From: Vermamoeba vermiformis | Lineage: Eukaryota | Assembly: GCA_045837725.1 (NCBI GenBank) | Contig: JBEWZL010000276.1 | Span: 124,001 to 188,000, forward strand | Reading direction: 5' to 3' | Length of the DNA: 64,000 nt | The notes under the pieces: generated by a model | Database searches by the model: none | The model's input: only the letters and a program-made list of their open reading frames with translations | What the model was told of the DNA's origin: nothing | Translations under genes and position numbers: made by a program | Shown here: in pieces, positions 18,001 to 56,646 of the stretch | Layout: every line of letters begins with the position of its first letter | Numbering within the stretch: position 1 is the first letter of the stretch

Positions 18001-19071
18001 GCTGTCCTTTGCAACTTCGTCAGCCACGGCAAATTTATTGAAGAAATCGTCAAGACTTTCTTGCACAAGATTCGTGAGAAGTACAAGGACTTCGAGTATC
18101 GTTTCGTCTTGGAAACCTTGAAGATCAAGTACGAACAAATCGAATCCTCCATTACTGAGGGCGAAGCAGTCACCGTTCCCACAAGTCCTCAAAAGAAGAA
18201 GAAATCCAAGTCCAAGAAGACTGATGACGAAGAAGACCAAGATAAAGAGAAGGAAGAAGAAGACGACTTGGAAGAGGACGACGAAGACACTGCGACCCGA
18301 ACACCTCTTCGTGCCCTTGAACGATTGTCCAAGCGTTTGGCTGATACCTACGGTATTCCTACTCAACGACACGAATGGCTCAGAAGGAGTTTGTATCAAG
18401 TGGTGAAGAGCTGCATGTACTACGCTATCGAGGACTTCCCCTCTCGTGTCAACTTCTTCCGAGCTGCTTTGTTCTTCTTGTCCAAGCTTGACGCTCAATC
18501 TGCTCGCATCTTGCGTGATGACTTTAACCGCAAGACTGCTGATCTCGAGTACGACGAGTTTGACCACAAGCTCCGACCTTTCTTGTCCTTCAAGGAAAAG
18601 CTTGAACGCTTGGCCTCCGGTGAGAAGGGCAGCCCTGCTAAGAAGAAAGCCACTACTTCCAAGAAGCAGTCTGAGAACGTTCGCAAGAAGCTTGAGTTCA
18701 CTAAGTCCAAGCAGTCCAAGGACAGTGAGGAAGATGAGAACAATGAAGAGGAAGAGGCTCTTCAAGACAAGCGCAAGACTAAAGGCAAGGGCAAGGGCAA
18801 GAAACAAACCGAAGAAGAGGAAGAGCCCGAAGAAACCACTTCGTCGAAGAAAAAGGGCGCTAAGGGCAAGGGCAAGAAGCAAGCCTCTGAAGAGGAAGAA
18901 GCCTCTGAAGAAGAGCCCCAACAAAAGAAGGGAAAGAAGGGCACTAACACTTCTCGTGTTCAATCTATTTACAGTGAAGAAGAGCCCGAGAAGAGCGACG
19001 AAGAAGATGAAAATACAAGCTTCGATGAAGATCAGATTCGCGAAAAACTTTTTGGAACTCGAAGCAAGTAG
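15009..19071 (+). CDS. SCC3: Cohesin subunit SCC3/STAG (SA)
   Basis: IDEWLKTYEEEKEDAMFALVNFIVQSCG, EYPI, FRHTAT, IFAHRYRDIFPDIRSACIEALGQWMMEYPAFFLTDNHLRYFGWMISDK, EIPQYFDL; K/E-rich tail; multi-exon 5' half. Confidence 0.93.
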
Positions 19072-24990: not shown

Positions 24991-26895
24991 TCATTCAATC
25001 AATAAATGAGTGAACTCTAGCAGTGCTTCTTCAACGTTTAGGCGCTCCGTCCACTCTCGAACAATCTGTGCATGGTTTTAGTGTTTAATGCATCCATAAC
25101 GACTCACCATTTTGTTGATAATATCAGTTACTTCAGTCGTAGATTGACGCCATTTGTTCGAGTAGTACTCGAGAACTTTGCCAGCACTGAACACATCCGC
25201 AACAAATGTTTTGCGATAGTCTGGCGAAACGAAATCTTTCTGCCCAAACAAGTAGAAGCGATCACTGCTCCAGTCTTGCTTGATGAACTGAACGCAGTCA
25301 TAGTCGATCAGCTGATGGAATTGTATTAGTATTAGCTACCTTTTAACTCAACTTCAAAAATACTTACAATGAGATTATCCTCATCGTCCCACATGATATT
25401 TGATGGAGCAATGTCACCATGAATCAGTCCATACGAGTGAAGTGTCTTCACTGCTGTCAGAAGTTCCACTGCTATTCTGATCACGTTCTTGTTTCTTGGT
25501 TTGCGATGATATCGAGGCATTGTCATCACGACTCCTGTGCACTCGTTGCATCGAAACATCTCGAATGAGAGCAAGGTTGGGAAGTGTTTCTTGCCACTCA
25601 TCATTTGTGTCACGAAGAACTCGTGTGGAATCAGCACTGTCAGATCATACGGACTACTTCCATTCCTGGCTTCGTTGGGGTTCATGAATGGAAGGCCAGT
25701 GAGCATCTTGCCGCATACTTTTCGTCCTTCAAGTGTGCCGAACAACACTCGCGGAACTTTTTTCTTCCTTTTAAGGCGATAAGAATTCATCGAGGCTTGT
25801 CTCCACTTCACTCCTGATGAGTTCTTAAAAATGTCGGTGAGCTTTCGTTGTTTTGTGTCACTCAGCAGTGAGTACGAATGTGCGTCTACTCTTTTCGAGA
25901 GACTGATTTCGCTGTAGCAATCCAGCAAAGCTCTTGTCAAAATTAAAGTGAGTGGTCAGTTCAATGCGCATGGCTCACACGTACTCGTAGTCAAAAGTGT
26001 TTGGTATTTCAGGAATGTCGTACACTCCTGTCTGCAGTGCTTTGATTGCATTGCTCGCTGACAGTCGCATTGATGGCTCGGGGTTTGTCTTTCGTTAAAA
26101 GTGTGAGCGAAAAACGTGTTGGATCTCGAACATAACGTACCAACACCTCCACAAGTCTCTTTAATTTTGTATTATTTGATCTATATTGCTTCGTCCATTT
26201 TTTTATTATTCGCCCAGCGCGTACCATGTCGTAGAGGGGCTGGCGTCGGTGGCCGTCCTCAGTCCATACGCCGCCATAAACGGCGATGTCCGCGTGAAAG
26301 AAGCACGAGTTCCATGAAGCAATCTAGTAATAAATAATTAGATTAAGAAAAGGAACTAAATTAATAATATTCACCTTGATTTCACCGTTGTTCCATTCAA
26401 TGGTTGAATCGTCAAGCTGCGAGTGAACAGCGCCAATTTTATGAAGAATTTCGAGCACTTGAAGAAGTTGAAGAGCCATATCAGTGACGCTCATGTGTTT
26501 GGGAGGCTCTTTTGAGTATTTTTTCAACTCAAAGTAAAAACCGCGAGAGTACGCGCGTTTCAGTTCGGCAAATCCGATCAGTTCTGGAACACCAAAAACT
26601 CCTTGCATCTCCAATAAAAAATATAATTCCACCTTTCTTAATTCTAAAATTGAAAAGGATGTAAGAGATAATAAATCTCGTAGTTTTAATAAGTTTTCGG
26701 CGGATCGAACTTACTGCGCCATTCAAAATCCTTTTCGGTTGGTTTAGGTGGCTTTTTAAACAACCACTCGTTATATTTTCCATTTTTCATGCCTTCTTTA
26801 ATTCGTACTTCGGCTTGTATAAAACTAACGCCGTAAAACTTGGCACTTCGAGGCAAATAAGCCAAATTAAGCTGTTCATAATTTGCTTTATGCAT
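24991..26895 (-). CDS. Tandem kinase-fold protein: N-terminal pseudokinase + C-terminal atypical protein kinase
   Basis: Domain 1 LEILHKIGAVHSQLDD (no catalytic D); domain 2 LHSYGLIHGDIAPSNIM..LIDYD..ADVFSAG; GT-AG introns (~26089-26139, ~25933-25984, ~25318-25367, ~25066-25107) join the ORFs in frame. Confidence 0.7.
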
Positions 26896-27296
26896 CTTAT
26901 TCCTATCGCCGATAAAATTACAAACCTTTTGTTACGTTGATTTAAATGTAAACCGGCAAGCGGCGGGCGGGAAAAATTTTCTTGCTAACAAGTTCCGAAT
27001 TGGCGGCACATTTTCTAATGCTTTTTACCAAACTAAAATATTACCATATTACAGAGTTTTAGTAATATCTTTTAGCTGCGCGTTAATCACTGATCTTGCT
27101 CCAGATGGCCAATCTTCCACTCTGAGCTGAGTGAGACTCCAATATTCCTCACTATCAAATATTAGCTTTCTTTTTCACTACGTGTGTTCGTGAAATGAGG
27201 ATCGGAAGAGTTTGACAGGTCCAAAAATACTTCTAGAACATTGTCCGGTCATACGAGCACACAAAATTCAAGCAAATACAACATGACATAGCAAAA

Positions 27297-30200
27297 ATGA
27301 AATATTATAAACGTAAGTTAACAGTTAATTATTAAGTGCTGTTCTAACTGGTCTGTAGTCCCGGTCGCGTTAATTATTTTTCTGGCTTTGACTTGTCAGC
27401 TCCTCACGGAAGGTAAATATTAGAAAATAGTATTAAAATATTAAAGCATATTATAGGATGCTTTGTCGACCAGTTTTTGTTACCGCACAACGCGATCTTG
27501 CCCACCATGGCAGTTGTTGGTGAAAATATTTTATTTGCCGGTGGATACATTGATAACCAACAGACGCCCACAAATATAATAGATATTTACAACCCAACTA
27601 CGAATAGATGGACCGTACATACAATGTTCAAAGCCCGAGAAGGAATGACAGCTGCAGTGGTCGGATCAACCTTGCTTCTTGCTGGCGGATGGGAAAAATC
27701 TTCCTGGAACGACAATCAACTAGTCAGATCAAGTTTAGTAGAGATAATTGACTTTCAAAACAACATTTCGTGGATGGCACATCTGAATTCCACCCGTCAA
27801 ATTTCAGCTGTTGCTGCTGGAGGAAAAGTCTTATTTTACGACAAAGCGTCACAAATTACAACAATAGATATATTTGATTTAGCGACGAATACGTCAGAAG
27901 TTGTGCAACGAGGATTTTACTGGACCGCATCTGCAGTTGGCAACGACATTCATTTCTTTACAAATTCAGAAGTAGATATTTATCATCCATCAAATAACAC
28001 CTGGACCAGCGAATCCCTCGGAATAGACATTTTAGGAGATATAATTGACTCCTTTGTAATCAAAGGTGACATTTACTTGATCACCGCGCGGAGCATATTT
28101 ATACGAAGATACGGAACGACCAGATGGCAGCTAATCAGCTTAGGCTTCGGCCATATTAGCTACCGTCTCGTCCACTATGACGTGCTATATATGATGGTTG
28201 GCCCTAGTCGCACCAAGATCAACACCGTGTTCACTTTGGACGGCCTAACGGGCAAACAACTTTCATGGGACTACGAGCCATACAACTTTGGCATTGAAGG
28301 CAGTGTTATCGCACATCAAGATAAGCTCTATTTCGTTGGTTGGTCTGCTAATGCTATTCAACGAGTGTTCCCACAAGTGCTCGTGTACGATGCCATTGAC
28401 ACGCGTCATCGATTAGTCGCATTGCCGAAGGACGACTATCAACTTCAACAAATGCACGAGCACAGAGGAAAGCTCTTTCTTGTCAACCGTGAAGCAGTGT
28501 CACCATCAGCCTTCGTCTACGACCTGTTGCTTGACAGCTGGCACTCGGTCGACTTTGATGACCCGAGAAGCGGCGTTATGATCACTTCTTCTGGCAACCA
28601 AGTCGTGTTCTACGGAGGAACATACGGCCCGTACAACGCATCCAAGTCGGTCCATGTCTACAACACCGACACAGATCTTTGGGCCCACTACAAAACCAGC
28701 GTGTCGGGTAAATTCGCCGTCGTGCGCAATGGTTGGCTCATTTTCTATGGCAACATTTACGGAGAACCAACACCGCACGTGGACGTATTTAACATACAAT
28801 CTGAGACCTGGACAGCACACTCGTTAACTAATTCAGCGTCCGACTACTTCACGGTGATATTCGACACTAAAGTAGCGCTATTGGCAAAAGATGTCATCAC
28901 GAGCATTGACGTTTTTGACACGTCAACTCAACTATGGACCGAGTTCTACCTTCAAACACCGCGCTCTGATTTCACGCACATATCAATCAACGGCATGATT
29001 TATATAGCCTGTGGCATCACTCTGGATCCAATGGCCTTCACAAACTCGCTCGAAGCGTACGACTTGAAGTCACTGCAATTCGTTTTCGAGCGAAATCTCT
29101 CTGACGCCCGTGCCAAGCCCGTGGCTGCCGTGTCATTTCCGTACGTGGTATTCGCTTGTGGGTCTCGTAATGGATTCCCAGTGTCTGCCATTGACGTGTA
29201 CAACATGGAAGATGACACGTTGCGACAAACGACTTTCAGACGTCCAGAACTCATTGGATCCGATTTTGGCATTGCATCTGTTGGCGACACAATGTACATT
29301 AGATACAACAACTACTTATGGATGCTTCGGCTGCGCACTCTCGAGCTGACACAACCTGTCGCTACGCCGTTCATGGCTGGCGGACGAAATTTCGCTATTG
29401 GCAACAACCTCGTCTTCTACGGCCAATCGGATTTTCTGGAAGTGTTTTATTTCTGGGAAACTACGACCAACGAGCACTTTCAAATGGCCACACCGTACCT
29501 CAGCGAGTACACGCAGTCCACATTAGTATGGAAGAACTTTTTGGTCATTTATTTGGGCGATCTCGTAATCATCGAACTTTCAACTGTCTGGACAGGCCTC
29601 ACAGACCGCGATTTGTTCATTGGTGAGACGACGACACTGGCTGTGGACGCTGTTGGCAATGGTCTCGAGTACTTTTGGTACCACGAGAACACCAAGCTCG
29701 AGGAAGTGCGTCCGTTCTTGTTTTTGAACACGAGCTCGCCTGATTTCAGAGAGGGCCGTTACTGGTTGGCGATCAAGGACCACTGTCGCTCGTACATGGA
29801 GTTGTACTCAAGAGTTGAACTGCTTGGTCCACCGACTTTCGAGTCACAATTAGACAATCGTACTGTGCTTTGTAACGCCACAGCACTTTTGTTCCAGCTC
29901 AATACGGACGGAAGAAACGTCAGCTTGGATTGGACGATCAACAACGAACGAAGAAGTAGCGTTGTCAACTCGACTTTTGTCCTGGATCTGCGCCCGCTCA
30001 CATGCGACTCAACCAATCAACTCTGTGCCACAGCAACAAACCCGTCAGGCTCTGTCAGCACGTGCAGTAACATTCATCTGGCTAGCTTAGGATCTATATT
30101 TAACGGTCCAAGAATGTCACCTGAACTGCAACTTCGATCGGTCGGCTCGTACGTCACACTTCGAGTTGACATTTTGGATGACAGGTGCAAAAATCACACG

Positions 30201-31839
30201 TGGTTCGTTGACTCTGAAGAGCTAGGCTCATTCGAGGCTTCATTCAGCGAGCTTGAAGTCCAGTTGGAGCGAAACGTAGAAAGTCAGAGATACATTGTGA
30301 CAACGACATGCGATGGCTCGAATTTGATGTCCGCGCCACTTATCATCACTTTGTCACCTTTACCAGCGTGGGGTCTAGCCGCCATTGTGATTCTCGGCGC
30401 TGGTATTATTGGCGGTGCAATTGCCGCTGCAGTCATTGTTCGACGAAGATTCAAGCAAGGCAAAAAGCAAGAAGTCGAGTTGAAGACAATGCTCAACAAG
30501 GCTAAGCAAGAGGTCCTGACCAAGAACGGCACCACGATTATCAGCACAACGAGTTGGGAATGGTCGCCTGATGACGAGCACATGTTCTGTCCTATCGACA
30601 AGTTGCCTGTCACCATCGACTTGTCAAACCTCGGCTTCAATCTGAGTGACCCTATTGAAGTCAATATTTGGACTCAAGGCACCATTGTCATTTCGTCCAA
30701 GAAGGCCTCAAAGAGTGCACTGCCGTTCTCGTCATTATTACACCAAAGTCTCATTGATGACGAGATTGATATCTACGTGCCGAAGTCGCCGAAGTACGAG
30801 CTAGAAGTCAATCCTCTGTCATTCAGGGTCTCTGACGGGTCAGTCACAACTCTCAACGTCTCAGCGATGATGAAAATGACGACTAAGGCGAAGATTCCGC
30901 TCGTTATTGTGATGGAAAAGAAGAAAATTTATTCATCGATTGACTTGGTCTTGCGAAGCAAACCATCGCCTTGGATCGATCTTGACAAGGTCAAACTGAC
31001 TGGTGAAGTACTTGGCCAGGGAGGGTAAGTTGACGTACATTGCATTTTACTTCCAAGTTTTTAATCGTGTTTGTAGATTTGGTGTAGTTAAGCGAGGTGT
31101 CTACAAAGGCCAAGATGTCGCTGTCAAATTGCTCTTGACGCAAGATTTGATCGACGAGACGAAGAAAGAATTTGAGCGAGAAGTGTCACTTATGAAGAAC
31201 TTGCATCACCCGAATATCATTCAATTCATCGGTGCTTCTAACGTCGAAGGCAAGCTCGCCTTGGTCACGGAGTTTGCGCCGCTTGGAAGTCTTGGAACGC
31301 TGTTGGAACGAGAGTTCATCCCGTACAACATCAAGCTTGTGATCGTGCTCGAGATTGCTCGTGCTATCAAGTTCCTTCATTCGAACAATATCATCCATAG
31401 AGACGTCAAACCACAGAACATCCTCGTGTTTTCGCTCGAGCCCAAAGCCACTGTTCACGTCAAACTGACCGACTTTGGCACGTCAAAGTTCGTGCCTGAT
31501 ACGTCCTCTGTTAACATGACAAAGTACACTGGCACTGCAAAGTACATGGCTCCCGAGACCTTCGGTGTAGATCCACGATTCACGCTCAGCGCAGACATTT
31601 ACAGCTTTGGCTTGTTAGTGTGGGAAGTCATCACCGGCCAGGATGCGTTCTCGGAGAAACAGTACATGTGGCAATCAAAAATCGAAGAATTCGTATTGTC
31701 TGGAAAGAGAATGCCTATCCCTGAAGAAATGGACCCTCGACTAGCCTCAATTATCGAACAATGTTGGGGCCAAGATCCGGCAAAGCGCCCGTCCATGACT
31801 CACGTAATTCAACAACTTTCAGCACTTGTGTACGGATAA
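27297..31839 (+). CDS. Receptor kinase 1: signal peptide, Kelch-like beta-propeller(s), Ig-like domains, TM, juxtamembrane beta domain, TKL kinase
   Basis: Signal peptide over two small exons (27297-27312, 27359-27412); FAGG..IDIYNP..W Kelch motifs; LEYFWY/GRYW and LDWT..C Ig-like domains; TM AWGLAAIVILGAGIIGGAIAAAVIV-RRR; intron 31025-31076 in GQGG|FG; HRDVKPQN, DFG, YMAPE. Confidence 0.9.
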
Positions 31840-32059
31840 ACCCGCTTGTATTGAATGGCTATGCATAGTTCCCGACCATATCATCGACGGTTAGTTTTTC
31901 CATTTTTAGGCATCCAACAAAAATAGTCAGTACAAATTTTAAATCTTAAAGAGGTTTGTTTTTATAAGCCCATTTGAACGTTTATTTACTCGATCGGGGA
32001 AGCCCATGTTTTCAACGTGCTTTTCGCAAAGGTTGACAAACGCATCCGCGCGAGCTAAT

Positions 32060-32711
32060 CTAGAACAAAGCAAGAACCGCAAGCAAGGAGGCCAAAGAAC
32101 CGATGACGATGGAGCTAGCATCAGACTTCTTGCAGAAGGCGGTAAGGTAGTCAGTGCCGATGGTGGTGCAAGTTGGACCAGCAGCAGTGGACTCAGCCTT
32201 CAAGTCGGTGCAGTTTGTACCGGTCTTGACAATAATCTCGCCCTTGCTGTTGCAAGCACCAAGACTGAAGCTGACATCACCAACCGCGTAGCACTTGTCG
32301 GTGTCTCTCACTAAACAAACTCGATCAGCAGATTCGTTTAAAAATGAAATTTATTTCCTTACCAGCCATCAAAACGTTGGAATTTTGGCACTTGTTGTCG
32401 GAGTAGCCAATAATACCGGTGTATTGGTCCTTAACAACGAGAGTCTGGGCGGCTAAGCAAGCATCCTTAACCCAGAAGTTACCTGCAGAAGTGCAAGTAG
32501 CAAGAGTAGAAGAGCAGTTGGACTATTAAAAAACCAAGGGTAGTAATATAGCGAGTGCTAGATTCAGCTGTAGACTTACTTGAACTTGGATGTAACCACC
32601 AGAAACGTTAGAATCCGAGCACTTATCATCGCCGTAGAAAGTAACGACCCAGAAGTCTGCAGAAACTGCAGCGACGGCGGCGAGGAGCAAGATGGCAAGT
32701 TTAACGTTCAT
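32060..32711 (-). CDS. Small secreted cysteine-rich protein with probable GPI-anchor signal
   Basis: Signal peptide MNVKLAILLLAAVAAVSA; 3 exons; ~9 Cys; C-terminal SDASS + hydrophobic tail IVIGSLASLLAVLALF. Confidence 0.75.
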
Positions 32712-33117
32712 TATTGTTGCGGTGTACGTTAGAACGATAAAAACTGTTGTAGCATTCATTTTTTCGTTTTTATTGTGGCCTCTCACGTGACTTTACGCAA
32801 TTCCGATTGGCTAATAACAAAAATAACGTCCGTTCCAAACAAACGATAGGCCTTACGATTGTAGCTCTAAGTAGGACCCAAGGCTCAAAGAAAAATATCG
32901 GCAGCTTTTTTAAAATGGCTTGACTCAAACATCTTAATGCTGTTAATTTCGAGTAAATAAAGATAGAGTGTTCAGACCGTCGGCAATTTGTAGCTTTCAA
33001 AATGTTTAGTACAATTTGTGGATGCGGGATCTTTTTCCGCACTCTAGAAGCTGTTCATGAACGAACAGCTACGTTGTGTATTATTTAATATTTTAGGGTT
33101 GTTAAGCGAGTAACACC

Positions 33118-36100
33118 TTATTTAATATTTGATAGTCGTTGTACAACAACATTAATTGAAGGACGTTGTTTTGGTTCGTGTTGCCAGCACTCTTCAATCA
33201 GTGCCACCAACGATGCATCAATCTCGTGCCCATGTGGGAATGGAAGGCGATTGCCTGATTTGACATGTTGTTCGATGTCTGAGTCCCATTTGAACTCTTT
33301 GAATGGCACTTGTTCGAACAACACTGACCACATCAGCACTGCAAAACTGTAAACATCTGCACTCTTGTCAATGCGTGGATTGCGTCCGAGTGCTTCTGGT
33401 GCCATGAATGCAATGGTGCCAACGTTCTTTGTGATCGTTGTGGGGTCATCAGCAATGAACCTTGATGTGCCAAAGTCAGTCAGTTTCACATGCACCGCTG
33501 CTCTTGTCTCGAGTGAGAACACGAGAATGTTTTGAGGCTTGATGTCGCGATGAATAATGCCGTTCGAGTGAAGGAACTGCAATGCTTTGGCAGTCTCCAA
33601 CAAGCACATCACTTTGAACTGAACTGACAGCGACTGTTTCTCCATCACACTTGCAAGACTGCCAAGAGGTGCGTACTCAATCACAATCGCCAAACTCTCT
33701 TTGACATTCGATGCACCAACGAACTGAACAATGTTGGGATGTCTCAAGCTCTTCATCAGTGTCACTTCTCGCTCGAACTCGATCTTCATATCATCAGTCA
33801 GATATTGACTCAGAAGCTTCTTCACGGCCACTTCTTGACCTCGATACACTCCTCGCACAACTGAACCAAATCTGTGATGAAGTGTCAGTCCGTGTCAAAG
33901 TGTCAAAAGTGTCATCACGTGTCATCACGTGTCACAACTTACCCTCCACCTCCAAGGAACTCTCCACTCATCTCAATCTCTTCAAGATCGATCCACGTTG
34001 ACATCTTACTGTCAAGTTTGAATTCGATGGCTGAGTAGATCTTTTGTTGTTCGAGCACAACGATCAGAACGACTTTGCATCTCGTTGTCATTCTCATTCG
34101 CACTGACACTGTCACTGAGTGAGATTCACCTCCTTCAACGTACAATGTCTCGGGCTCAACAGTCACTTCGTACTTGGGTGATTGAGGTGCGTAAATGTCA
34201 ATCTTCGTTCCTGAGATGAGCTTCTCTGTCAAGATAGTCGACTTCTTGGTCTTCTTTGGTGTTCGCGATGATATCTGAAGCTCTTTGTTGAAGTTCATCT
34301 CGATATCAAGTGGTTCTCCTTTCTCAACAAACTTCAGTTGTGAGGTATCGATATTGACAGGGAGACTGTCAAGTGACTTGTATGAGAAGTCTTCGCTTGG
34401 TTTCCATTGCCACGTTGTCTTGTTGATGATCGGCATCGATTCTTTCATCAACGAGTCAGTCTTTGCATTGGAGAGGAGTGCTGAGAGTTCAACTTCTTTG
34501 TCTTGGCTTTGATTCAGTTTCTTGCGCTGCAGCACAACAACGACAATGAACACTGCAACACCTAAGAACACACCAATGACCAACAACACAACACCGTAAA
34601 CTGGAAGTGGTGACACCTGCTCGAAGCTGAATCTGCGTGACTCGATGAGACTGTTGCCACATGTTGCAACTACGTAGTATTGATACATGGCCATTGAAGG
34701 TGACAACTCGACTGAGAATGTGCTGCTTCGTGTTTCTGCTTGTGTCACATTGACTCCGTTAACATACCACACATGACTCGTGCAGTCTCGTTCCAGGATA
34801 TCCACACTCAGCTCCACGGTTGTATTGGAGAACCATGTTGGTGGAGTTGTTGATGGAAGTGGTCCTCTGATCACTGAGTCGAGTTCGAGCATCTTCACTC
34901 TTGCACACGATTGTGTCTGGCCCGATGGATTGGATGCGTACGCACATACCAACGCGCGAGTGTTGCATGTAATGTGACTGGTTGACACATGAAGTGTGGC
35001 CTCGCTGGCATCGGTAACTGGGTGCCCATCAATGGTCCACGTGTACTCCACAGCCACGCCATGAGCCTCGATTGGAAGCTCCTCCACACGATCACACAAG
35101 GCTACAGAGTCTTTCAATGGAACACTGAACATTGGCACATCGTGAACTGTCAGTCTCGCTTGGTGAACAATGTGAAAGTTGCAATGATCGAGCATGTCAA
35201 CACGATACATTCCATCTGAGTGCATTGTCACATTGTCGAGGATCAGTGTGGGATTGTCATCTTGAATGGCTTGACCTTCGTGCGTCCATTGATATCGCAG
35301 TGGAGGACCTGCAGTGGTTACTGTGAAGTTGGTTGATTGGCCAATGAATAGCTCCTCGCCGTTGAACCCTTCGAGCAGCGTCGCTAATGGCATCACATAG
35401 GGTCTCGTCAGCTGTGCCTCTCCAAGATTAACCATCACATAGTTTGACACCAAGTCGCTGGCGGCTCTGCCTGTTATAGTCCCTCTCGTTGTAATGTACG
35501 TCCATTCTCCCGTCGAAACTTCGTAGATTGTGATGGATGTGCCTGATGAGCCGGGCGGTGTCATGTGCGCAACAAGCTTCGATCCAACAGCTGTCATCCT
35601 TTGCATATTAAACACGGGGAAAGGCATTGACGTGATCGCTCCAGTTTCGACTTCAACAGCTTCGATAGTCAGTGAGCGTCCGACAAATACTTTGTTGCCA
35701 ATTGTGAGTAGTACTGGCGCCGTTGAAGACAAGGTGCGCGGCAACAGGATGGTCTTCCATGTGCGGTTTGTGGTGTCAAACACGTCCAACGGCTGAGTTT
35801 GTGTCGTTACCATGCCTGTAAAGACGACGTACTTGCCCAATACAACCATTTGAATCGCATTTGCAGGCGTTGAGAGCGTCCATCTCGTCGTCGTATTGCG
35901 CTGAACGTCGATCACGTAGAAAGCGGTGACTTGGTTTGCATAAGTGTCCGTCACAAAGACAAAATTGTGTGCTACGAACAGTGCGCCAGTGATTGATTGT
36001 TCCGGGAGCGAAATGTCCTGAATAGTGGTGCTTGTCATTACGTCGAATAGAATCACGCCGTGCTGTGTTGTGGCAGCTAAAACAGTGTCATTGTAGGACG

Positions 36101-37688
36101 TGAACGTGATTGCTCCGAGCTGAAGCACTTCCAACTTGTGCGTGTTGACATTGAGCAAATGAACATTGCTGTACGTGGATGCTCGATCGAGGGCTCTTAA
36201 GGTTATGAAATCTCCAAAACCAACTACGTCGTTCAAAGCATAAATGCTCGGCAACTCCAGTCGTTCCATGCTGTGCTCGTTAAAGTCGTACAAAAAGACC
36301 AAGAACCCCTGATCTGAACGCGTAACATAAGCTAATTTGTCTCGTGTCATAGCGCGCAGTGATAAGCGAGATTCTCTGGGGTACGGATGTACTGTTGTCA
36401 CTCTCGTGTTCAAGTTGTACGTGGTTACATTTGGCTCGAGAAAGTAGAATAATGTGTCTCTTTCTGTGAATGAAACAGTTGTTCTAACATCCAGCTCGAG
36501 TCGTTGAAACGTGTACCGTAGGTCCAACATGTGAAATCTCTCTTGGCTCCCGGGCAAAACTTCGTTAAACACTACCACACCATTTGCATTGACCGCTGAA
36601 AAAAATGTATTCACATTGTGAGGCAGCACGTGATGTATCTCGAATGGCACGAACGGATTGGTGATTACGTAGCCCGTGCTGAAGCGATAAATGTTTCGAT
36701 TGATAACTACTGCCGCCCGGCCTAGGTTCATGCTTTGTTGAAATGTGTGCAGAATGCCTGTCTCTGGAGCCATTGCTGAATATACATCGACGTGTCTTAG
36801 TCCAAGCATGTATATGTAGCCATCAGAATAAACAGCAGTAATGTATGTCGCGGTAAATGTGACGTTTGAGCTGCTCAATGTCTCCAAATCAATAATTTCC
36901 ATAACTTTTCCAAACGTCGTTATAAGGAATGCGTGAGTTCCGTTTGTAACTCCCAAGTTATACGGGACCTGTCCTGCTGGCAATGGTTCAAACTCGAGTG
37001 TTGTTAAATCCATTATTAGGGTGAACGCTGGAGCATTTTGAAGGTGTCCGAATACAACTGCCTTTGACTCTCCTATGACGACGCTGCTTAGTCGATATGG
37101 TTCGGGAAGTTGTAAGCTCGTCAAACTGTTGTCATTCAGATCGTAGATCTCCAGCACTTGAACATCGCCATTTTCGTCACGGCCGCCAAAGAAAATAATT
37201 ATTAAGCCATTTGAGTCAGCTGAAATACGCCTTCGTGGTTGAGTGAGGTTGAAATAGGTCCATTCACGGGTGGAGGTGTCAAACACAGCCACTTCCGAAG
37301 AGGGTTTGTTGTCGCCATCTATTCCGCCAGCGAAGAATACTTTATCTCCTGATGCAACCAGTGTTATCTCTCTTCTTTGAATTGGTAATGACAGGGGCAA
37401 AAAGCAACCTAAAAATTACCAGATGAGCGAATCCAGCATAAAGCATTTTAAAAAAATGGACAGATACAGTAGCTTGGATATAGATGCTTTAAAACATTAA
37501 ATAATTTATCATCCGGCTTCTAGTTAGTCCGCATCTGGGTCAGACAAAACGTTTTTTTTTTGATGACCACTTACTCTTCGAAAGGCACAAAAATAATACA
37601 AATGCAATGATAGTCGTCAGTATTTTTTCTAAAATTATTAATTAAAACTCGGAATGACGATTATTGCAACCGATTATTTACCAGACAT
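33118..37688 (-). CDS. Receptor kinase 2 (Kelch/Ig/TM/TKL)
   Basis: Signal MSEKILTTIIAFVLFLCLSKS from two small exons; large exon 37408-33943; YQW..D.G.Y Ig motif; TM VYGVVLLVIGVFLGVAVFIVVVVL; intron 33872-33942 in G-loop; HRDIKPQN, DFG, FMAPE. Confidence 0.9.
33872..33942 (-). repeat. Intronic short tandem GTGTCA-core repeat (6 cores)
   Basis: gtgtcagtcc gtgtcaaa gtgtcaaaa gtgtcatcac gtgtcatcac gtgtcac; paralogous intron 38634-38694 is 10 nt shorter. Confidence 0.8.
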
Positions 37689-37879
37689 TCGTGCTTCTTA
37701 TTTCTATACCATTTGACATGTAAATAATAGTCAATTGTTGTTTGATGCATTCGCCAAACAATGGGATTGAAAATGGTTTGCGCCTGATGATTTTGACGTT
37801 TGACATTCCGACCCTGGTTTACTTGGTTGGGAGGAGCCAATTGTAACTAACGCAAACGGACGTCGAGCCGATTGAGTCA

Positions 37880-40800
37880 TTATTTAATATTTGATAGTCG
37901 TTGTACAATAACATTAATTGAAGGACGTTGTTTTGGTTCGTGTTGCCAACAATCTTCAATCAGTTTCACCAAAGATGGATCGATATCGTGCCCATGAGGG
38001 AATGGAAGTCGATTGCCTGATTTGACATGTTGTTCGATGTCTGAGTCCCATTTGAACTCTTTGAACGGCACTTGTTCGAACAACACTGACCACATCAGCA
38101 CTGCAAAACTGTAAACATCTGCACTCTTGTCAATGCGTGGATTGCGACCGAGTGCTTCTGGTGCCATGAATGCAATTGTGCCAACGTTCTTTGTGATCGT
38201 TGTGGGGTCGTCAGCGATGAACCTTGATGTGCCAAAGTCAGTCAGTTTCACATGCACTGCTGCTCTTGTCTCGAGTGAGAACACGAGAATGTTTTGAGGC
38301 TTGATGTCGCGATGAATCACTCCGTTCGAATGAAGGAACTGCAATGCTTTGGCAGTCTCCAACAAGCACATCACTTTGAACTGCACTGATAGCGACTGCT
38401 TCTCCATCACACTCGCAAGACTGCCAAGAGGTGCGTACTCGATCACAATCGCCAAACTCTCTGTGATATTCGATGCACCAACGAACTGAACAATGTTGGG
38501 ATGTCGCAAGCTCTTCATCAGTGTCACTTCTCGTTCGAACTCGATCTTCATATCATCGGTCAGATATTGACTCAGAAGCTTCTTCACGGCCACTTCTTGA
38601 CCTCGATACACTCCTCGCACAACTGAACCGAATCTGTGGTGAAGTGTAAGTTCGTGTCAAAGTGTCAAAGATGTCATCGCGTGTCACAACTTACCCTCCA
38701 CCTCCAAGGAACTCTCCACTCATCTCAATCTCTTCAAGATCGATCCACGTCGACATCTTACTGTCAAGTTTGAATTCGATGGCTGAATAGATCTTGTGTT
38801 GTTCGAGAACAACGATCAGAACGACTTTGCATCTCGTTGTCATTCTCATTCGCACTGACACTGTCACTGAGTGAGATTCGCCTCCTTCGAGGTACAATGT
38901 CTCGGGCTCAACAGTCACTTCGTACTTGGGTGATTGAGGTGCATAAATGTCAATCTTTGTTCCTGAGATGAGCTTCTCTGTCAAGATTGTCGATTTCTTG
39001 GTCTTCTTTGGTGTTCGCGATGATATCTGAAGCTCTTTGTTGAAGTTCATCTCAATCTCGAGTGGCTCTCCTTTCTCAACGAACTTCAGTTGTGAGGTAT
39101 CGATATTGACAGGGAGACTGTCAAGTGACTTGTATGAGAAGTCTTCGCTTGGTTTCCATTGCCACGTTGTCTTGTTGATGATCGGCATCGATTCTTTCAT
39201 CAACGAGTCAGTCTTTGCATTGGAGAGGAGTGCTGAGAGTTCAACTTCTTTGTCTTGACTTCGGTTCAGTTTCTTGCGTTGCAGCACGACGACGACAATG
39301 AACACTGCAACACCCAAGAACACACCAATGACCAACAACACAACACCGTAAACTGGAAGTGGTGACACTTGTTCGAAACTGAATCTGCGTGACTCGATGA
39401 GACTGTTTCCGCATGTTGCAACAACGTAGTATTGATACATGGCCATTGAAGGTGACAACTCGACTGAGAATGTGCTGCTTCGTGTTTCTGCTTGTGTCAC
39501 ATTGACTCCGTTAACAAACCACACGTGACTCGTGCAGGTTTGTTCCAGGATATCCACACTCAGCTCCACGGTTGTATTGGAGAACCATGTTGGTGGAGTT
39601 GTTGATGGAAGTGGTCCTCTGATCACTGAGTCGAGTTCGAGCATCTTCACCCTTGCACACGATTGTGTCTGGCCTGATGGATTGGATGCGTACGCACACA
39701 CCAACGCGCGAGTGTTACACGGCATGTGACTGGTTGATATGCTTAAAGTGGGAGAGGAGTTGGTATCAACTGTCACTCCGTCAATGGTCCACGTGTACTC
39801 TACAGCCACGCCATTGGCTTCAATCGGAAGCTCCTCCACACGATCACACAATACCACAGAGTCTTTCAATGGGACACTGAACATTGGCACATCGTGAACT
39901 GTCAGTCTCGCTTGGTGAACAATGTGAAAGTTGCAATGATCGAGCATGTCAACACGATACATTCCATCTGAGTGCATTGTCACATTGTCGAGGATCAGTG
40001 CGGGATTGCCATCTTGAATGGCTTGCCCTTCATGGGTCCATTGATATCGTAGTGGAGGACCTGCAGTGGTCACTGTGAGGTTGGTTGATTGGCCAATGAA
40101 TAGCTCCTTGCCGTTGAACCCTTCGAGCAAGGTCGATAACGGCATTATGTAAGGTGTCGTGCGTTCTACGTTGACAAAAAGATAGTTCGAAACTGTGCCA
40201 ATCAACGAGTCAATAGATGGTAACGTAAGGAAGGTCCAGTCTCCTGTTGTAACTTCGTAGATTGTGACGGTGACGATGCCTACGCCAGGCGGATGTGATT
40301 GTACAATAAGCTTCGAGCCCAAAGTGGTCATTGTCGCTAAGTCGGAGACTGGGAAAGGAAGTGTTGTGATGGCGCCTGTCTTGACATCGACTGCATCGAT
40401 TGTAATTGATCGGCCAATGAATAGTTTGTCGCCTATTGCAGCTAGTATCACTCTGTTTGAGTACAATGTGCGAGGCAGCACAACAGATCTCCACGTGAGG
40501 TGCGTCGTGTCGAACAACTCCACGGGTTGAGTTTGCGTCAAGCTCAGTCCTGTAAAGGCTGCGTAGTTGCCAACCACTGCCATTTGTAGTCTTGACATAG
40601 GTGCTGCGAATTGGTGTGTTCTGATGTTGCTACTCCGAACATCAATCGTGTACGCCAAGTCTCCGTCCATTCGCGTTGCAAACAGAACGTCATTAGCCGC
40701 ATGAATCGAAGTCCATTGCCCATTAATGGGAAACTCGCGCAACGCTCTTCTTTCCACAACATCGTATAGAACAACGCTGGATGAAGCTAGCACGGCCAAA

Positions 40801-42398
40801 ATATTGTCCTTGTAAAGGGTGGCGTGTATTGCGGCAAGAGGCACTGTTGTTAAGCTGTTTTCATTGATGTCGAACAAATGAATGGTAAGCGTGGCCAGGC
40901 CCTGTGTCACGCTCATAAAGGCCACTAAATCTCCAAAAGCTACGGCAGCTTGGACTGTGTTAATGGGCAAGTCTATGGTGTCCACGCTCTGACTATCAAA
41001 GTCGTATAAAAAAACTGAAACTTGTCCAATGAACTGCGATACATAGGCAAGCTTGTGATCCATTAGAACGTAAATAGGATACTGGCTACGAAATCTGTCT
41101 CCAGCTGCTGGATGCACTGTCAAACTTCTCGAGTTGAAGTCGTACGTGGTGATGCTTGGCTCTTGAAAGAAGAATATAACGTCGCGCGATATGAAAGTGG
41201 CACGTGTCGAGAGTGTCAGAAGCGGCGTAAGTGTATAGCGTGTGTTGAACACGGAAAATTGTCCGTTGTCAAGTCTCGCGAATATCATTCCATTTGCAGC
41301 AGCTGACATGTCAAAATGGGTATTCTGCGGCAAGTTATGCTGTATTTCCAATTCCAAGAACGGATCAATGATGGTGTAACCTGAGCCAATCCGATAAATC
41401 TTCTGATTTATAACGACTGTCGCTGTCGCACTGCGCGCTCTACTTTGTCGATACATGTAGGTGATGGTATTGCCGGTTGTCGTTGAATAAAGAATGGCTC
41501 GCCTTGGTCCAAGAAAATAAACAAATCCATCCGAATAAATGACTTGAAGTGTTGCAGCCACGTTCATGACAACCACATCCGATATTGTCAGGGTCTCCAA
41601 GTCAACAATATAGATCATATCGCCAGTTCTTGTAATTAAAAATGCGTGAGTTTCGTTGGTCGCTCCTACATAATATGGATTTATGGATCTTGTTTCTAGT
41701 GGTGTAAACTCCAACGTTGTTAAATCAAGTATTAACGGTGGTACTATTGGTGTAGTTTCGTGAGCATTTCCAAATATGATCGCCTTGGACTGTCCCATAA
41801 TGACTCTATTATATCGATATTGTTCAGGGATTAGAGTGCTTGTCAAGCTGTCACTGTTCAGATCGTAGATCTCAATAACTCTACTATCAACATTAGATTC
41901 GCCTATTCCTCCGACAAATATAATTTTTGAGCCATATGAGTCAGCTGAAATACGCCTTCGTGGTTGAGTGAGGTTGAAGTGGGTCCATTCGTGCGTGGAG
42001 GTGTCAAACACAGCCACCTCAGAAGAGAGTTTGTTGTTGCCATCTATTCCACCAGCGAAGAATACTTTATCTCCTGCTGCGACCAGTGTTATCTCTCTTC
42101 TTTGATTTGGTAATGAAAAGGGTAAAAAGCAACCTAAAAATTACCAGATGAGCCAATCCGATCGCAATAATTAGCAATCGCTGATACAAATTTACTATGC
42201 TTTAAATAATAATTTGCAAAAAACCAGGGTCACAAAATTATCGAATCCGATTTTTTGTTTGGATCTGCTTACCACTCGACAAAGGCAACAATAATAAACA
42301 TGCCACGACGTATATTATTATAGTGTCGCCTAAAATTATATTATAATTAGTAAAACCCAAGCTCCAGCTTAACTTAACGCCGTCACTGTACCTGTCAT
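37880..42398 (-). CDS. Receptor kinase 3 (Kelch/Ig/TM/TKL), tandem paralog of kinase 2
   Basis: Signal MTGDTIIIYVVACLLLLPLSSG from two small exons; same intron positions as kinases 1 and 2; kinase nearly identical to 33118-33858. Confidence 0.9.
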
Positions 42399-42541
42399 AC
42401 TGCAGCTTTGTCTTTTATCAATAATAGTATGTCTCGCATATGTACGACATCTAATACGGTTGCTTTGGTGTTGTAGAAATCTTAATAAAAATGATTTGTA
42501 TTTTTTTGGTCTAATTTTTTCCTTCCCAGTGCCAGTACTAT

Positions 42542-45500
42542 TTATTTGCTTTCCTCTTTTGGTTTGGCAACGATATTATCATTTGCTGTAGTTGCAGCCT
42601 TTTCGTCATTTTGCGCCAGTTGAGCCAAATTGACGTGCGCCAAAAGATTAGCCGACGTGCTCTGATGGTGATGATAAGCCGCATCGTTCATCGAAGGAAT
42701 AGGTGCTTTGTCAGGGTGCACCGTTTTCAAATGGAAACTGAACGGTCTGTACGAGGCATCATCTTGCGGTCGAGATCTGCATCGAGATTCAGTTAGCAGC
42801 TGCTAATTGCACTTACTTTAGCCCAAGTGACTTACCTCATCAAATCGACGACGGGGATAAGATGTTCCCATCGTTGTTTCTTGGGCACACGACGCTTGAA
42901 GTCCATATTGGGAATCAGATCTGCGAATGGAATAAACTCGAAATCACCTCCGTTGATGCCAATTGCGCCAAACAACTCTTTGCCCGACTTGAAATATTCG
43001 TCCATTTTATCGACGGCGTATTGGGCAAACTCAGCGCCACGAAGGCGGTCCATTGGCGAAGGCGAATAGCCCTAGTTAATGTTAGTACGCACGAGATCTG
43101 TGAATTACACGCACCTGTTGCAAGTGACCAAGGATAGTGTGACGCACGTCAAAGAATCCTTTGCCCTCCTCGGTAAAGATCTTCGACAAGATGTCAGTTG
43201 TGTAAGTCTCGCTCGCCCTCTCGCTGTTAATGACCAAGCTCGTCGTCTTGCACATTTTGAATCTCTTTTTCATGCGGTCGACGTCATCAGCCAATTGTCG
43301 TAGAGTAATGCCGTGTTCAGGAGTGTAACATAACTGTGCACCACCAGCGATGGAGCCACAAATGCCCAAATAGCCGCAGTTGCCACCCATGACTTCCATA
43401 ATGAACACACGAGCACGCGATGCCACTGCACTCAGCTTGACTTTATCGGCACTCTAGTGATAGTGGTTAGCACTGTGTTGATATAAAATGATAAGGCTTA
43501 CTTCGACAATGCAGTTCAACGCTGTGTCAGATCCGATGGACACGTCAGTTCCCGGCACGTTGTTGCTGACAGTAGCAGGAACGCAAATGATGGGAATGTT
43601 GAATTCAGGGTACTTCTCTTTGTTCTTGTGAAGGGCAATGGCTGCAGCATAACCTTCCCAACCACCGATAAGCAGCATTCCCTAGCAAAGTTATTAGCCA
43701 ACCAAGAATGTATATCTTCCGGCTTACCTTTATCTCGTACTGCTTGAAGCACTTGGCAATCTTTTCGAACTCTTCGTCTGTACTTGGAATAGTTCTGTTT
43801 GTACCTAACAAAGAGCCTCCAATGTTTGACCAGCTATTCAAAGAGTTGGAGATCAGATTTAGTGCACGTGCTAACTTTGCAACTTACCCGTTCACGCTGA
43901 GCCATTGAAGCTCTTCAGGCGCGTCACCTCCATCGAGGATATCCTTAATTCCGTTGTAGAGAGCCATAGGTCGGTAACCCTTGTTGATCAGCATTCTCGT
44001 AGCACAACGAACGGCGCTGTTCATGCCGGGCGCAGGAGCTCCAATGTGGGTGATAGCAATTGCAGGTTTCTAAACAATTAGCTCTTTATAGTATAATAAG
44101 AGTGGCTTACCTTGACAGAATCGGGTAAAATGACCGGAGCAGATCGCGTCAAAACAAAAAGCGTCTTCAAAGCGTTGTTAAATACTGGACCTCGTAGCTG
44201 CATAGCCTTCTCGTATTCTCCGTCGCGAATTGCCTGGCCAACAGATTGAGTCTACATAACAAACCGTTAGCTCCATCCGGAAGATCTTTGCCGATCCGCA
44301 AAATAAGTTCAAGCTCCACAGCTGGCAGGCAAAATAGCCCTCGATGGAGGTTAAAATAGAAGGGATAAAAGCAAAAAAGAGAAAGAGCACAACACCTCCG
44401 ATTCCCAGGTAGTCTCCTACCCCAGTACTAAGAAGGCCTGAACAAGCTTAACTTCGCTGATCGGACGGGAAGCGGTGCATTCTTGTTAGTGTGGTCGTGC
44501 CCGAGTGCCAACGCAATTTCAAACGAAGGTCACTACTTGCGACCATTGGACTGCTCTTACCATTTTTACGGCCTCCATCAGGTTGGATCGCACGACCTTG
44601 GATCCGCGAATACCAATCAACGTGTGTTGGAAGCCTGGTTTAGCGTCCAATATGGCTTCTACTGCCTCCATACCCATTTGAGTACTCTACGCGCCTCATT
44701 AATACTTGACCACTATTAAGCCTATTATTACGTACCAACAGTCTGTCGTAGAAACATGGAGTTCCACCGCGCTGGATGTGACCCAAAATTGTGACACGTG
44801 CTTCCATCTTCAAATCTCCTTCAATAACGTCCTTCACTTCATTGGCTGTGATGATCTTTCCTTTCGTGTCGCGTGCTCCTTCAGCAATAATAATGACACT
44901 CATTCGCTTGCCGCGGTCACGGCCCTTCTGAACTGATTTGCACATCTTTTCTTTCCATGTCTCGTCGTTAGGGAACTCGGGCACGAGAACATAATCACTG
45001 CCTGTGGCCAAACAAGCTGCGATAGCCTTAGATCCAGTCAGTCAAACACGCGTACTAACGCATGCATAAAACTACTCACCAAATAACCACAATCGCGGCC
45101 CATAACTTCAACGACGAATGTGCGTTGATGTGATGCAGCAGTAGTCATCAATGAGTCAATGCACTCGATAATTCGATGCAAGGCTGACGCTGCACCGATC
45201 GTCATATCTGTGCCCCACATGTCATTGTCAATTGAGCCAACCATACCAACTACATAGAAATTCTTTTGGTGTTCCTGCAAATATTACGAGCGTCAATTTC
45301 GTTTCGTCAATTACGCTGTGCGGATCGCACCAAGAAATATCGCTTAAAACCACTCATTAATTTTAAACATTAGGGCTCCTTCAGCTCTATGTTTAGTCTG
45401 CTTATTGTATTGTATATTGATACTTACGTAGGAATATTTGGAAATTTTTCCTTCTTTGTACAATTCTTCGACGTACTCGGGCCATTCTCGACTCAAAATA

Positions 45501-46085
45501 TCCGCGCCAGTCAAGCTGCCGTCACCACCAATGCACACTAAGCGGTCAATGCCAATTTCGAGTAAATTTTGTGCTGCTTTTTTGCGTCCTTCTCGTGTTC
45601 TAAATTCAGGACAGCGAGACGTGCCAATCATCGTGCCTCCCTGAAGAAAATTTTTCAATTTGAGTTCCAGCCCAAGGACTATATTTGGCAAATTTGTAAT
45701 GTCTAACACTCACTTTTTCTAAAAAGCCCGAGACATCGTCCCACATAAGCCGTCTAATGAAAGATCCACCGGATACCATGCCATTGTACCCTTCAAAAAT
45801 TGCGTACGGCTCAGCGCCTTGAAATATTATTAGTACATATAATATTGGCAATATAGCGAAATAGGTGTCGATTATTATTTTATTTTACGAATATTTTCAA
45901 AAATTTTCGTTGGACTGGTCTTCAATCGCTTAGATACGACGTGCAAACGTACCTGACAATATTCCTCGACGAACGATAGCACGGACTGCTGCATTCATGC
46001 CAGAGCAATCGCCTCCGCTCGTCATAAAGCAAAACCGGATGGGTGGCTTCACCGACCCATCAGTGGCTTGTTGTTGCTGTGCCAT
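42542..46085 (-). CDS. PFK: ATP-dependent 6-phosphofructokinase (eukaryotic duplicated type)
   Basis: [71 protein letters not shown]; regulatory half [29 protein letters not shown]. Confidence 0.96.
44384..44502 (-). rRNA. 5S rRNA gene nested in PFK intron 44252-44560
   Basis: Minus strand GGGCACGACCACACTAACAAGAATGCACCGCTTCCCGTCCGATCAGCGAAGTTAAGCTTGTTCAGGCCTTCTTAGTACTGGGGTAGGAGACTACCTGGGAATCGGAGGTGTTGTGCTCT; all five helices pair; AGTTAAGC box A, TTAGTA loop E, T6 terminator downstream. Confidence 0.95.
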
Positions 46086-46269
46086 CGTAAAGATATATGA
46101 GTACTCTACAATGTGTTAATAAATTTTAAATGATAATTGCCGGTCTCAAAATTAATTTTACCGTTAGAAGTCGCGGCTTAACTGGATCGTGACTTAATTG
46201 TTGGTAACGTGAAAAAACGAGTTTTGTGGTACTTGTGTGTATAATAAGAAGTAGTGAACCACATATAAA

Positions 46270-47938
46270 ATGGTATTTATCGTAGAATAATTAATATGGA
46301 CGCATTGCATAATTGTCGAAGATAATCTATGTGGATTTTAGAGATTCGACCGTTTTAGTCAATAATCTGTGCAACGATTAATTAGATTGTATTATAGATT
46401 CGCCCTCTCTTATTAAAAGGTCACGAGAAGTCGATCACTCAAATCGCTTACAACCGCGAAGGAGATTTGCTGTTCTCAGCTAGTAGAGCCGAGTTTATCA
46501 CCGTATGGTGGGCTGACAATGGTGAACGTATTGGTACTTATCACGGTCACAATGGTGCTGTTTGGTTCCTTGATGTTTCTCGTATCCTTTTATTCCAACC
46601 ATTTTATTAGATCGAAAAATTACAATAATTATTATATTTTTTCCTTGACCTTCTAAAATTACAGAGGATTCAAAGAGACTGTTGACTTGCTCAGCAGATA
46701 GCAGTGCTAAAATTTGGAACGTTGAAAATGGCAGAGAACTTGCTCACTTCCCTCACCGGTAAGATCCGATCTGAAAATTTTCTCTGCTCGTTATAATTCA
46801 CCAATGTCTCGATGCTTATTTTCGAATATATAGATACCCTGTAAGAAGCTGCGGTTGGGGTCATGGAGCAAAAATGTTTTTGACAGCGACAGATCAAGTC
46901 ATGGGTGCTACTCCCGTGATCAGTCTTTTCAAAGTTGCTGATGATCCTCGAGATCGTAAGTATTATTTTATATAATTATTTTAGTAAGATCAACGTGTAT
47001 TAATGCGGCACTTAAAGAAAACGACACTCCCATCCGCGAAATTCCTGGCCCTGGTTTGCACAAGATCTACCACGCTGTTTTTGGCCCTAACAACGAGACT
47101 ATTTATACTTGCAATGAAGACGGTACTATCAGAGTTTACGACACTGAGGTAAGGCTTATTTTTCGTAAACTGGATCCGCTCGTTCGATAAAATTTCCTCG
47201 TTTGCATTTTTACTAACAAATTGATAATACATAGACCGGCAAACAAACCAACGTTGTTACCGTGCACAAGAAGGCTGTGAACAGAATGCAATTCGACAAA
47301 TACCAATTAACTTTCATTACCGCTAGCAGAGACGGTACTGCTCGTTTGTTTGACACTAAGAGCTTGCAAAATTTGAAGACTTACGACGCTGGTCGACCTG
47401 TCAATGCTGCTAGCATGTCATCGATTAAGGACCACGTAAGTACCTCACTTTGACACGCAGCCTAATCATTCATAATTCACTGAACAAATCGGCGTACCTC
47501 AATAATTATCAACACTGCCGCCAATAATATTATTATGCTATACGATATTGTTAATTATATTAGTTATTGAGTGACGATATCGTAAAGTTGCGAGTGCGCG
47601 TGGATCTGGTTCTAACGAAATTTTGTTTGCAGATTATTCTTGGAGGAGGAGAAGCAGCTATTAATGTAACCTTGACCAAGTTGGACACCACTCAATTCAA
47701 GACTCGATTCTTCCACAAGATCTACGAAACTGAATTGGGTTCATTGATGGGTCACTTCGGTCCTGTCAACGCTTTGACATTCAGTCCTGACGGCAAGGGC
47801 TTTGCTTCAGGAGGAGAAGACGGTTACGTCAGATTGCACCACTTTGACCAGAGCTACTACGAGCCTGATGACGACGAGACTTGGAGCCCTGCTCGCGAGA
47901 TGAACTTTGGTACCACCATTAACAATAAGGACGCTTAA
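46270..47938 (+). CDS. EIF3I: Translation initiation factor eIF3 subunit I (WD40)
   Basis: [83 protein letters not shown]. Confidence 0.96.
46582..46664 (+). other. U12-type (minor) GT-AG intron in eIF3i
   Basis: 5' GTATCCTTTT, branch TTCCTTGAC at 46641-46649, 3' ACAG; splicing gives [20 protein letters not shown]. Confidence 0.92.
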
Positions 47939-56443: not shown

Positions 56444-56646
56444 AAATATTAGGCAGATCTGCAAAGTTCTCAGAACAGTTACCAAGATGAGCGTTATGAT
56501 TGTGTAACGTAGTAGAGTTATTATGAGCTTATTTCTGCATAACAATAAAGCGATTACAATTTTTGTCAGAGCTTCGATGTGAGCAGCAATTATTATTGCT
56601 TTAATTGTTAAAACAACATCGATGATAAAAGTTAGGTATAGGAGCA

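Follow-up and report, generated by a model that had tools for sequence, protein, structure and literature searches.

Three predicted receptor kinase genes, here called g1, g2 and g3, lie in a 64,000-nucleotide stretch of the Vermamoeba vermiformis assembly GCA_045837725.1 (positions 124,001 to 188,000 of contig JBEWZL010000276.1), which as a whole is called the window; its contig carries the label C276 (G000:C276), and the assembly searched comprises 43.3 Mb in 309 contigs. The genes combine tandem Kelch-type beta-propellers, immunoglobulin-like (Ig) domains and one transmembrane (TM) helix with a cytoplasmic module, a juxtamembrane domain plus a tyrosine kinase-like (TKL) kinase, of the kind known from the transmembrane kinases (TMKs) of Entamoeba. 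This is apparently an undescribed receptor architecture, a known cytoplasmic module under a new head, expanded in one amoeba lineage. Gene g1, of a subfamily with a slowly evolving propeller, occupies 27297..31839 on the forward strand (exons 27297-27312, 27359-27412, 27457-31024 and 31077-31839). On the reverse strand lie g2 (33118..37688; exons 37688-37682, 37628-37575, 37408-33943 and 33871-33118) and g3 (37880..42398; exons 42398-42392, 42329-42273, 42133-38695 and 38633-37880), the latter of a subfamily with a fast-evolving propeller.

The four exons of each gene splice to stop-free proteins of 1466, 1426 and 1418 aa for g1, g2 and g3. All introns are GT-AG, 44-166 bases long, with phases 1, 1 and 2 in all three genes; intron 2 falls at the end of the signal peptide and intron 3 within the Gly-loop of the kinase. 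A first-pass annotation of this DNA had the three introns identically placed, which holds for their number and phases but not for intron 1, found after codon 5 in g1 and after codon 2 in g2 and g3. An orthologue of g1, P0002 (1463 aa; 87% identical in the propeller, 95% in the kinase), aligns with it end to end across all three splice junctions. P0002 is probably derived from cDNA, because its 4456-base contig is intron-less, and cluster members located on long genomic contigs are broken up into pieces of 1170-1194 aa and 230-238 aa. In a related strain, five RNA reads also have intron 3 spliced out. By hydropathy each protein has a hydrophobic N-terminus (a predicted signal peptide) and one further peak, the TM helix, and Pfam finds Kelch_1 in the large exons (E 4e-19, 3e-4 and 3e-8 for g1, g2 and g3), weak Ig_3 in g2 and g3, and the kinase at E about 1e-52. 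The original picture of three genes with signal peptide, one TM helix and kinase is thereby borne out. Mature masses of 156-162 kDa are predicted, as are 6-12 N-glycosylation sites, and the proteins are predicted from their sequences to be type I cell-surface receptor kinases.

In g1 the head spans aa 25-738 (27459..29600, +), its first residue being a conserved Cys, and is followed by three Ig-like domains with seven conserved Cys (29601..30356, +) and the TM helix (30369..30446, +; limits approximate). An AlphaFold model of this ectodomain built with an 18-sequence alignment is all-beta and confident, with a predicted local distance difference test (pLDDT) of 88.4 and a predicted template-modelling score of 0.76; a fold prediction from the single sequence gave no confident model (pLDDT 35.7). 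Structural alignment recovers one ring from model residues 1-315 (Z 22.4, root mean square deviation 3.5, 292 aligned) and a second from residues 316-710 (Z 21.8, root mean square deviation 3.4, 353 aligned). What had been annotated as a Kelch-like propeller region of about 700 aa thus has the propeller fold in a confident model and Pfam Kelch matches, but as two propellers in tandem and not one; the two to three Ig-like domains are refined to three by the model and the Cys pattern, and paralogues give Ig_3 and I-set matches. Counting strands suggests seven blades in ring 1 and, we infer, about nine in ring 2. The blades are of the Kelch type (four strands, GG and Y/W motifs), with Pfam above cut-off and the fold in agreement; the GG motif is retained in 2-3 blades per window gene against 12 in P0053, the earliest-branching and most regular member of the family. 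Foldseek neighbours are the multi-propeller proteins ROS1, PorZ and Bacteroides sensors, at low template-modelling scores, and further propeller matches at 0.89 serve as leads only. A Cys directly follows the signal peptide in 9 of 9 full-length proteins and in 11 of 12 long genomic Kelch-Ig open reading frames (ORFs). With the seven Ig Cys this makes eight, a count that suggests a disulfide tying the propeller head to Ig1.

Below the membrane, g1 encodes a juxtamembrane domain (30519..30989, +) of about 157 aa, Ig-like, where a beta-rich domain of about 130 aa had been noted. Its profile matches the Entamoeba TMK linker in HHalign at 94% (E 1.3e-7, 77 columns), against 0.1-1.1% for six controls with the family's own Ig domains; a hidden Markov model from a single sequence matches Entamoeba weakly (E 0.002-0.04 in 246 proteins). 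Weak matches, none above cut-off, link both juxtamembrane sets to Ig families of the ASH/MSP type (Cep192, HYDIN, CFAP65, MSP), and the domain is probably an ASH/MSP-like Ig fold; a search of solved structures gave no match (best E 0.063), and an Atlas match (0.75, HYDIN-like Ig) is a lead only. The juxtamembrane profile finds at least five proteins among 8000 candidates, and the cytoplasmic part as query finds 58 of 7773, including seven Entamoeba kinases, one Pelomyxa kinase and one CXXC protein. The TKL kinase domain of g1 (30990..31839, +, interrupted by the intron 31025-31076) has VAVK, HRDVKPQN, DFG and APE intact, and the VAVK, HRD, DFG and APE motifs are likewise intact in g2 and g3. 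Hallmarks of receptor tyrosine kinases are an HRDLAARN catalytic loop and a P.[KR]W motif; the propeller-Ig family has HRD[IV]KPQN and GT..[YF]MAPE instead, and motifs of the tyrosine type belong to a separate Kelch-TM family described below.

Kinase phylogeny places the linker-bearing kinases, with those of Entamoeba and Pelomyxa, in one clade, both in a FastTree analysis of 61 sequences (support 0.925; 29 of 90 dropped as partials or near-duplicates) and in an IQ-TREE analysis of 50 (SH-aLRT 86.4, UFBoot 67; 14 further dropped, three EGF-type added). The outgroups of these trees are thin, without cellular TKLs of Dictyostelium or Acanthamoeba, and the CXXC kinase from the cytoplasmic-part search shifts position between them. 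The resemblance to Entamoeba TMKs claimed at first pass therefore stands for the juxtamembrane domain and, at modest support (UFBoot 67), for the kinase, whose grouping is suggestive, not firm. The two families share a signal peptide, one TM helix, large family size, the juxtamembrane domain and a TKL kinase with an S-L/D insert before KLTDFG.SR (compared with EhTMK A-F of E. histolytica, i.e. PATMK/TMK96, TMK39 and TMKB1-9). They differ in having a CXXC ectodomain there, and propellers plus Ig in a free-living tubulinid here. TMKs are defined by an ectodomain rich in CXXC and akin to the Igl lectin subunit (PMC2880585, PMC13592706). The proteins of g1-g3 have no CXXC and 0.8-1.0% Cys; the seven Entamoeba proteins have 5-93 CXXC, and their Cys content is 7-14%. 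Because the defining ectodomain is absent, the window genes are relatives of the TMKs and not members.

Across the genome, the juxtamembrane query gives 41 matches among 48 candidates. Propeller and Ig sequence lies upstream in all of the best 21 of these; since three of the 21 sit on alternative haplotype contigs, there are at least 18 propeller-Ig-kinase loci, a lower bound that supplies the genome-wide copy number wanting at first pass. Frames are broken in at least two of the 18, and several more show a frame change, perhaps from an error of assembly. The other 20 matches are one truncated copy, 12 of a leucine-rich repeat (LRR) group (by Pfam for four ORFs, by eye for two more loci, and by the full-length P0005) and seven of an EGF/Cys-rich group (by Pfam for one locus, by eye for two). 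Four ectodomain types, propeller-Ig, LRR, EGF and multi-Ig, thus stand on one cytoplasmic module. In protein searches, every full-length propeller-Ig match that extends past the TM helix carries the linker, and the named ones are all from Vermamoeba; in a search of representative sequences, giant multi-Ig proteins crowded the best 150 of 75,586, which does not bound the range of the family.

Several of these relatives merit description. The LRR ectodomains are plant-like (L049-L058 and L060, on G000:C124, C247, C200, C221 and C263). Kinases of the EGF/Cys-rich receptors (L061-L067, on G000:C77, C81 and C145) cluster with an EGF/CUB kinase of Pelomyxa (85/88). The multi-Ig receptors L076-L079 and L084 (G000:C53, C77, C22, C136, C302) have some ten Ig domains or more, and in one such gene a DDE_1 transposase ORF (L077:2508-4223) separates the Ig exons from the exon that encodes TM helix and kinase. 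A kinase-less Kelch-Ig-TM protein (L081:1310-4327, G000:C294), possibly a co-receptor or decoy, ends about 25 residues past the TM helix and has a 98% match in another data set (P0155). At L093:7379-7942 (G000:C132) the C-terminal half of a family kinase stands as an orphan, with no receptor sequence upstream. A second family joins the propeller directly to a TM helix and an HRDVAARN tyrosine-type kinase, with neither Ig nor linker and often in tandem arrays (L068-L073, L075, L082, L087; e.g. G000:C66:373872-377127, C198, C143, C150, C257). Of the 93 rows listed for it, 39 match at 64% or better along 180 aa or more, with the ectodomain checked for nine. HHalign shows homology between its propeller and that of the g1 family (99.6%, 495 columns), and both trees place its kinase outside the TMK-like clade.

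The assembly contains paired haplotype contigs (C274/C276 and C202/C49) that differ by 4-5% in DNA, with synonymous divergence of about 0.1, as in a highly heterozygous amoeba genome; EukProt transcripts of V. vermiformis are 59-81% identical to the family loci of this genome. Contig C274 matches the window at 25430-32903 and then at 37871-46987, at about 96%, skipping g2. In read run X1, possibly the source sample itself, the g2 propeller is covered to a depth of 138, where g1, g3 and the flanks reach about 250-300. Gene g2 is present on one haplotype only. That the g2/g3 tandem is instead an assembly artefact of two alleles, an idea invited by the presence of duplicated haplotype contigs (C274 against C276), is largely refuted and highly improbable: a read contig (37399-37939) crosses the 191-base spacer between the g3 stop and g2 start (37689..37879) with 0 differences, which makes the tandem real, reads cover the g2 propeller half as deeply as its flanks, and run X5, a water metagenome of a different study, contains a 296-base piece of that propeller with 0 differences.

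The two genes diverge very unevenly. The propellers of g2 (35370..37406, -) are 46% identical to those of g3, with a synonymous divergence (dS) of 1.26, against 92-100% identity in the homogenised tract of Ig, TM, juxtamembrane and kinase sequence (33118..35369, -), where dS is 0.14-0.22 (Ig 0.22, TM-linker 0.14, kinase 0.15) and that of alleles is 0.08-0.15. Old, divergent propellers are here joined to near-allelic 3' halves. The same split is seen in a tandem pair on C49, of which haplotype C202 is without one copy, and two further neighbours on C276 share the kinase exon only, at 96%. Informative sites alternate in the C274 copy, so the crossover point cannot be placed. These data show directly that ectodomains are shuffled, 3' parts homogenised and copies present or absent by haplotype. 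Among paralogues the median identity is 59% in the kinase, 42% in the juxtamembrane domain, 29-32% in Ig and 18% in the propeller, and g3 is 51% identical to P0247, from a EukProt Vermamoeba relative, in the propeller and 85% in the juxtamembrane domain. In the g1 subfamily it is the Ig part (79%) that is more variable than the propeller (87%). Alleles are 97-99.6% identical in the propeller, with three aa differences there between g1 and its C274 allele and 19 between g3 and its own. Polymorphism in the g3 propeller stands at 20 nonsynonymous to 36 synonymous changes, against 11 to 55 in the rest of g3 (P 0.02) and 3 to 47 in the g1 propeller (P 0.0003). Each of 11 loci compared has orthologue-like relatives in other strains or species.

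The origin of the head can be approached through its best matches outside the family. There are 39 such propeller matches among 8000 candidates, and the top named or domain-marked ones are bacterial secreted Kelch proteins with a type IX secretion system (T9SS) sorting domain, from Saprospiraceae and Chitinophagaceae. The closest pairs P0053 with P0263 (Saprospiraceae), 32% identical over 605 aa, although these Bacteroidetes proteins are soluble secreted cargo with neither TM helix nor kinase; a scan of prokaryote genomes for the propeller gave one weak match among 48. The same Kelch subtype occurs in Acanthamoeba (ACA1_342050) and in single-ring Kelch-TM-tyrosine kinases (P0273, P0274), so any transfer of the head was old. 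On best matches, a bacterial origin of the head is a possibility.

No description of a Kelch-Ig-TM-TKL receptor was met in the literature searched, which most subscription papers lie outside, and the first-pass impression of an unfamiliar architecture is to that extent upheld. Kelch-bearing transmembrane kinases are on record in trypanosomes (PMC8519429): Tb927.5.3150, AAZ11428, AAZ11429 and ESS66992 likewise have Kelch outside, a TM helix and a kinase inside (PMC8519429, PMC10463195), and their descriptions, which rather than sequences are compared here, list no Ig or TMK-type linker. In the accessible part of the PMC10463195 supplement Kelch appears in five rows, of which two are from plants and three from trypanosomes; Ig is in none of them. 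A parallel is offered by ichthyosporean receptor tyrosine kinases (PMC4342544), a protist repertoire in which duplication, domain shuffling and gene conversion bring renewal. A Kelch motif is named in the legend of an architecture figure (the basis of this comparison), but the tyrosine kinase domain there is of metazoan type. Bacteroides hybrid two-component sensors (BT4663, BT4673), PorZ and ROS1/Sevenless are also membrane sensors in which several propellers precede beta-sandwich domains; at 9-12% identity, low template-modelling scores and with another blade type and output domain, they are analogies only. A 170-kDa, tyrosine-phosphorylated, Gal/GalNAc-inhibitable surface protein of Vermamoeba, known from cross-reacting antibodies only (PMC2199037), could at low odds be one of these glycoproteins of about 160 kDa, which its size and tyrosine signalling would fit. 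The same study reports hybridisation with an Entamoeba lectin gene in Vermamoeba (PMC2199037), so the 170-kDa protein is likely a different one. A search for the Gal/GalNAc light-subunit family matched none of the control genomes and so carries no weight.

The reading we favour, in an evenly balanced judgement drawn from the pattern of variation, is that these receptors recognise prey or pathogens. The two propellers would form a ligand-binding head on a stalk of three Ig domains; binding of repeated structures on a particle (a prey bacterium, fungus or virus) would cluster the receptors, and their kinases would then trans-phosphorylate, probably on Ser/Thr, with dual specificity possible by sequence prediction. 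The juxtamembrane domain would recruit cytoskeletal or trafficking partners, so that the particle is taken up or rejected. Tandem duplication and unequal crossing-over would keep the signalling half uniform, while old, differing heads gained and lost between haplotypes would make the recognition repertoire variable. Several findings speak for this reading. The propeller is the most divergent part among paralogues (18% against 59% in the kinase), g2 and g3 differ so much more in propeller dS (1.26) than elsewhere (0.14-0.22, against the allelic 0.08-0.15), two tandem loci each have a haplotype without one copy, the g3 propeller has an excess of amino-acid polymorphism, and four ectodomain types share one module. 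Roles in ingestion are also on record for Entamoeba relatives, erythrophagocytosis for PATMK (PMC2211552) and recognition of E. coli for TMK39 (PMC13592706).

Other findings weigh against this reading. Propellers of the g1 subfamily are conserved, 87% and 84% identical to orthologues. Positive selection was looked for, and dN/dS is below 1 everywhere (0.34 for the g2/g3 propellers), so that relaxed constraint also fits. RNA reads that align (132 and 272 of about 13 million per run) are nearly all from kinase exons and a diverged strain, and do not demonstrate expression of g1-g3 in this strain. The grouping of the kinases with TMKs reaches only 86.4/67 over thin outgroups, and ligand, location and activity are all predictions.

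Among the alternatives, the best to survive, though still unlikely, is that the receptors sense soluble cues (sugars, peptides or lipids) that steer growth, encystment or excystment. It draws on double-propeller Bacteroides two-component sensors (3ott, 4a2m) among the fold neighbours, on the link of EhTMKB1-9 to serum-dependent growth (PMC2880585, PMC3312203) and on the conservation of the g1 subfamily between species; those fold matches score low, however (0.2-0.3 by query length), and the haplotype presence/absence of g2/g3 and fast propeller change would be unusual for sensing a fixed metabolite. An extended form of prey and pathogen recognition, which we regard as doubtful, has a bacteria-derived double Kelch head (seven plus about nine blades, Cys-tethered to Ig1) fused to two unrelated kinase types in some 60 receptors, with heads swapped by recombination into a combinatorial repertoire under balancing selection by prey and parasites. 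Recognition of self or kin in adhesion, mating or fusion, through polymorphic ectodomains, is distinctly improbable. Haplotype-specific copies, the Ig stalk and the raised g3 polymorphism would suit it, and the kinase-less Kelch-Ig-TM paralogue on C294 could be a partner, but no linked receptor-ligand pair is evident and propeller alleles are 97-99.6% identical, where known allorecognition loci are far more variable. About as improbable is a largely neutral birth and death of redundant, drifting copies, their 3' parts converted merely because they are similar enough to recombine: conversion does need similarity, dN/dS never exceeds 1, and at least two of the 18 loci are broken with several more showing a frame change, yet the g2 and g3 propellers are open and under purifying selection after a dS of 1.26, and orthologue-like relatives persist for the 11 loci compared.

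Elsewhere in the window, a small multi-exon gene between g1 and g2 (32711 to about 32060, -) encodes, by eye, a signal peptide, a Cys-rich body and a hydrophobic, GPI-anchor-like C-terminus. A kinase-like fragment with an HGDIAPSN loop, below Pfam cut-off, lies at 25332-25955 (-), and two related coiled-coil and SAM-domain genes stand in tandem at 55043-59199 (+). Ordinary neighbours are phosphofructokinase (42780-45710), cohesin SCC3/STAG (16627-19071), a mitochondrial carrier (60910-61650) and SAC3/GANP with RRM (6105-8653).

The TMKs of Entamoeba are usually regarded as a peculiarity of a parasite. Their module in a free-living tubulinid, behind four ectodomains, points to a signalling chassis that is older and amoebozoan (or else was transferred); the CXXC coat of the parasite would then be one choice of ectodomain among several. 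Among hosts of bacteria and giant viruses in water systems, Vermamoeba is a common one. If the receptors do recognise prey or pathogens, a family with haplotype presence/absence would give a direct handle on how free-living amoebae tell the two apart, and strain differences in feeding or virus susceptibility may be mappable onto this countable set of receptors.

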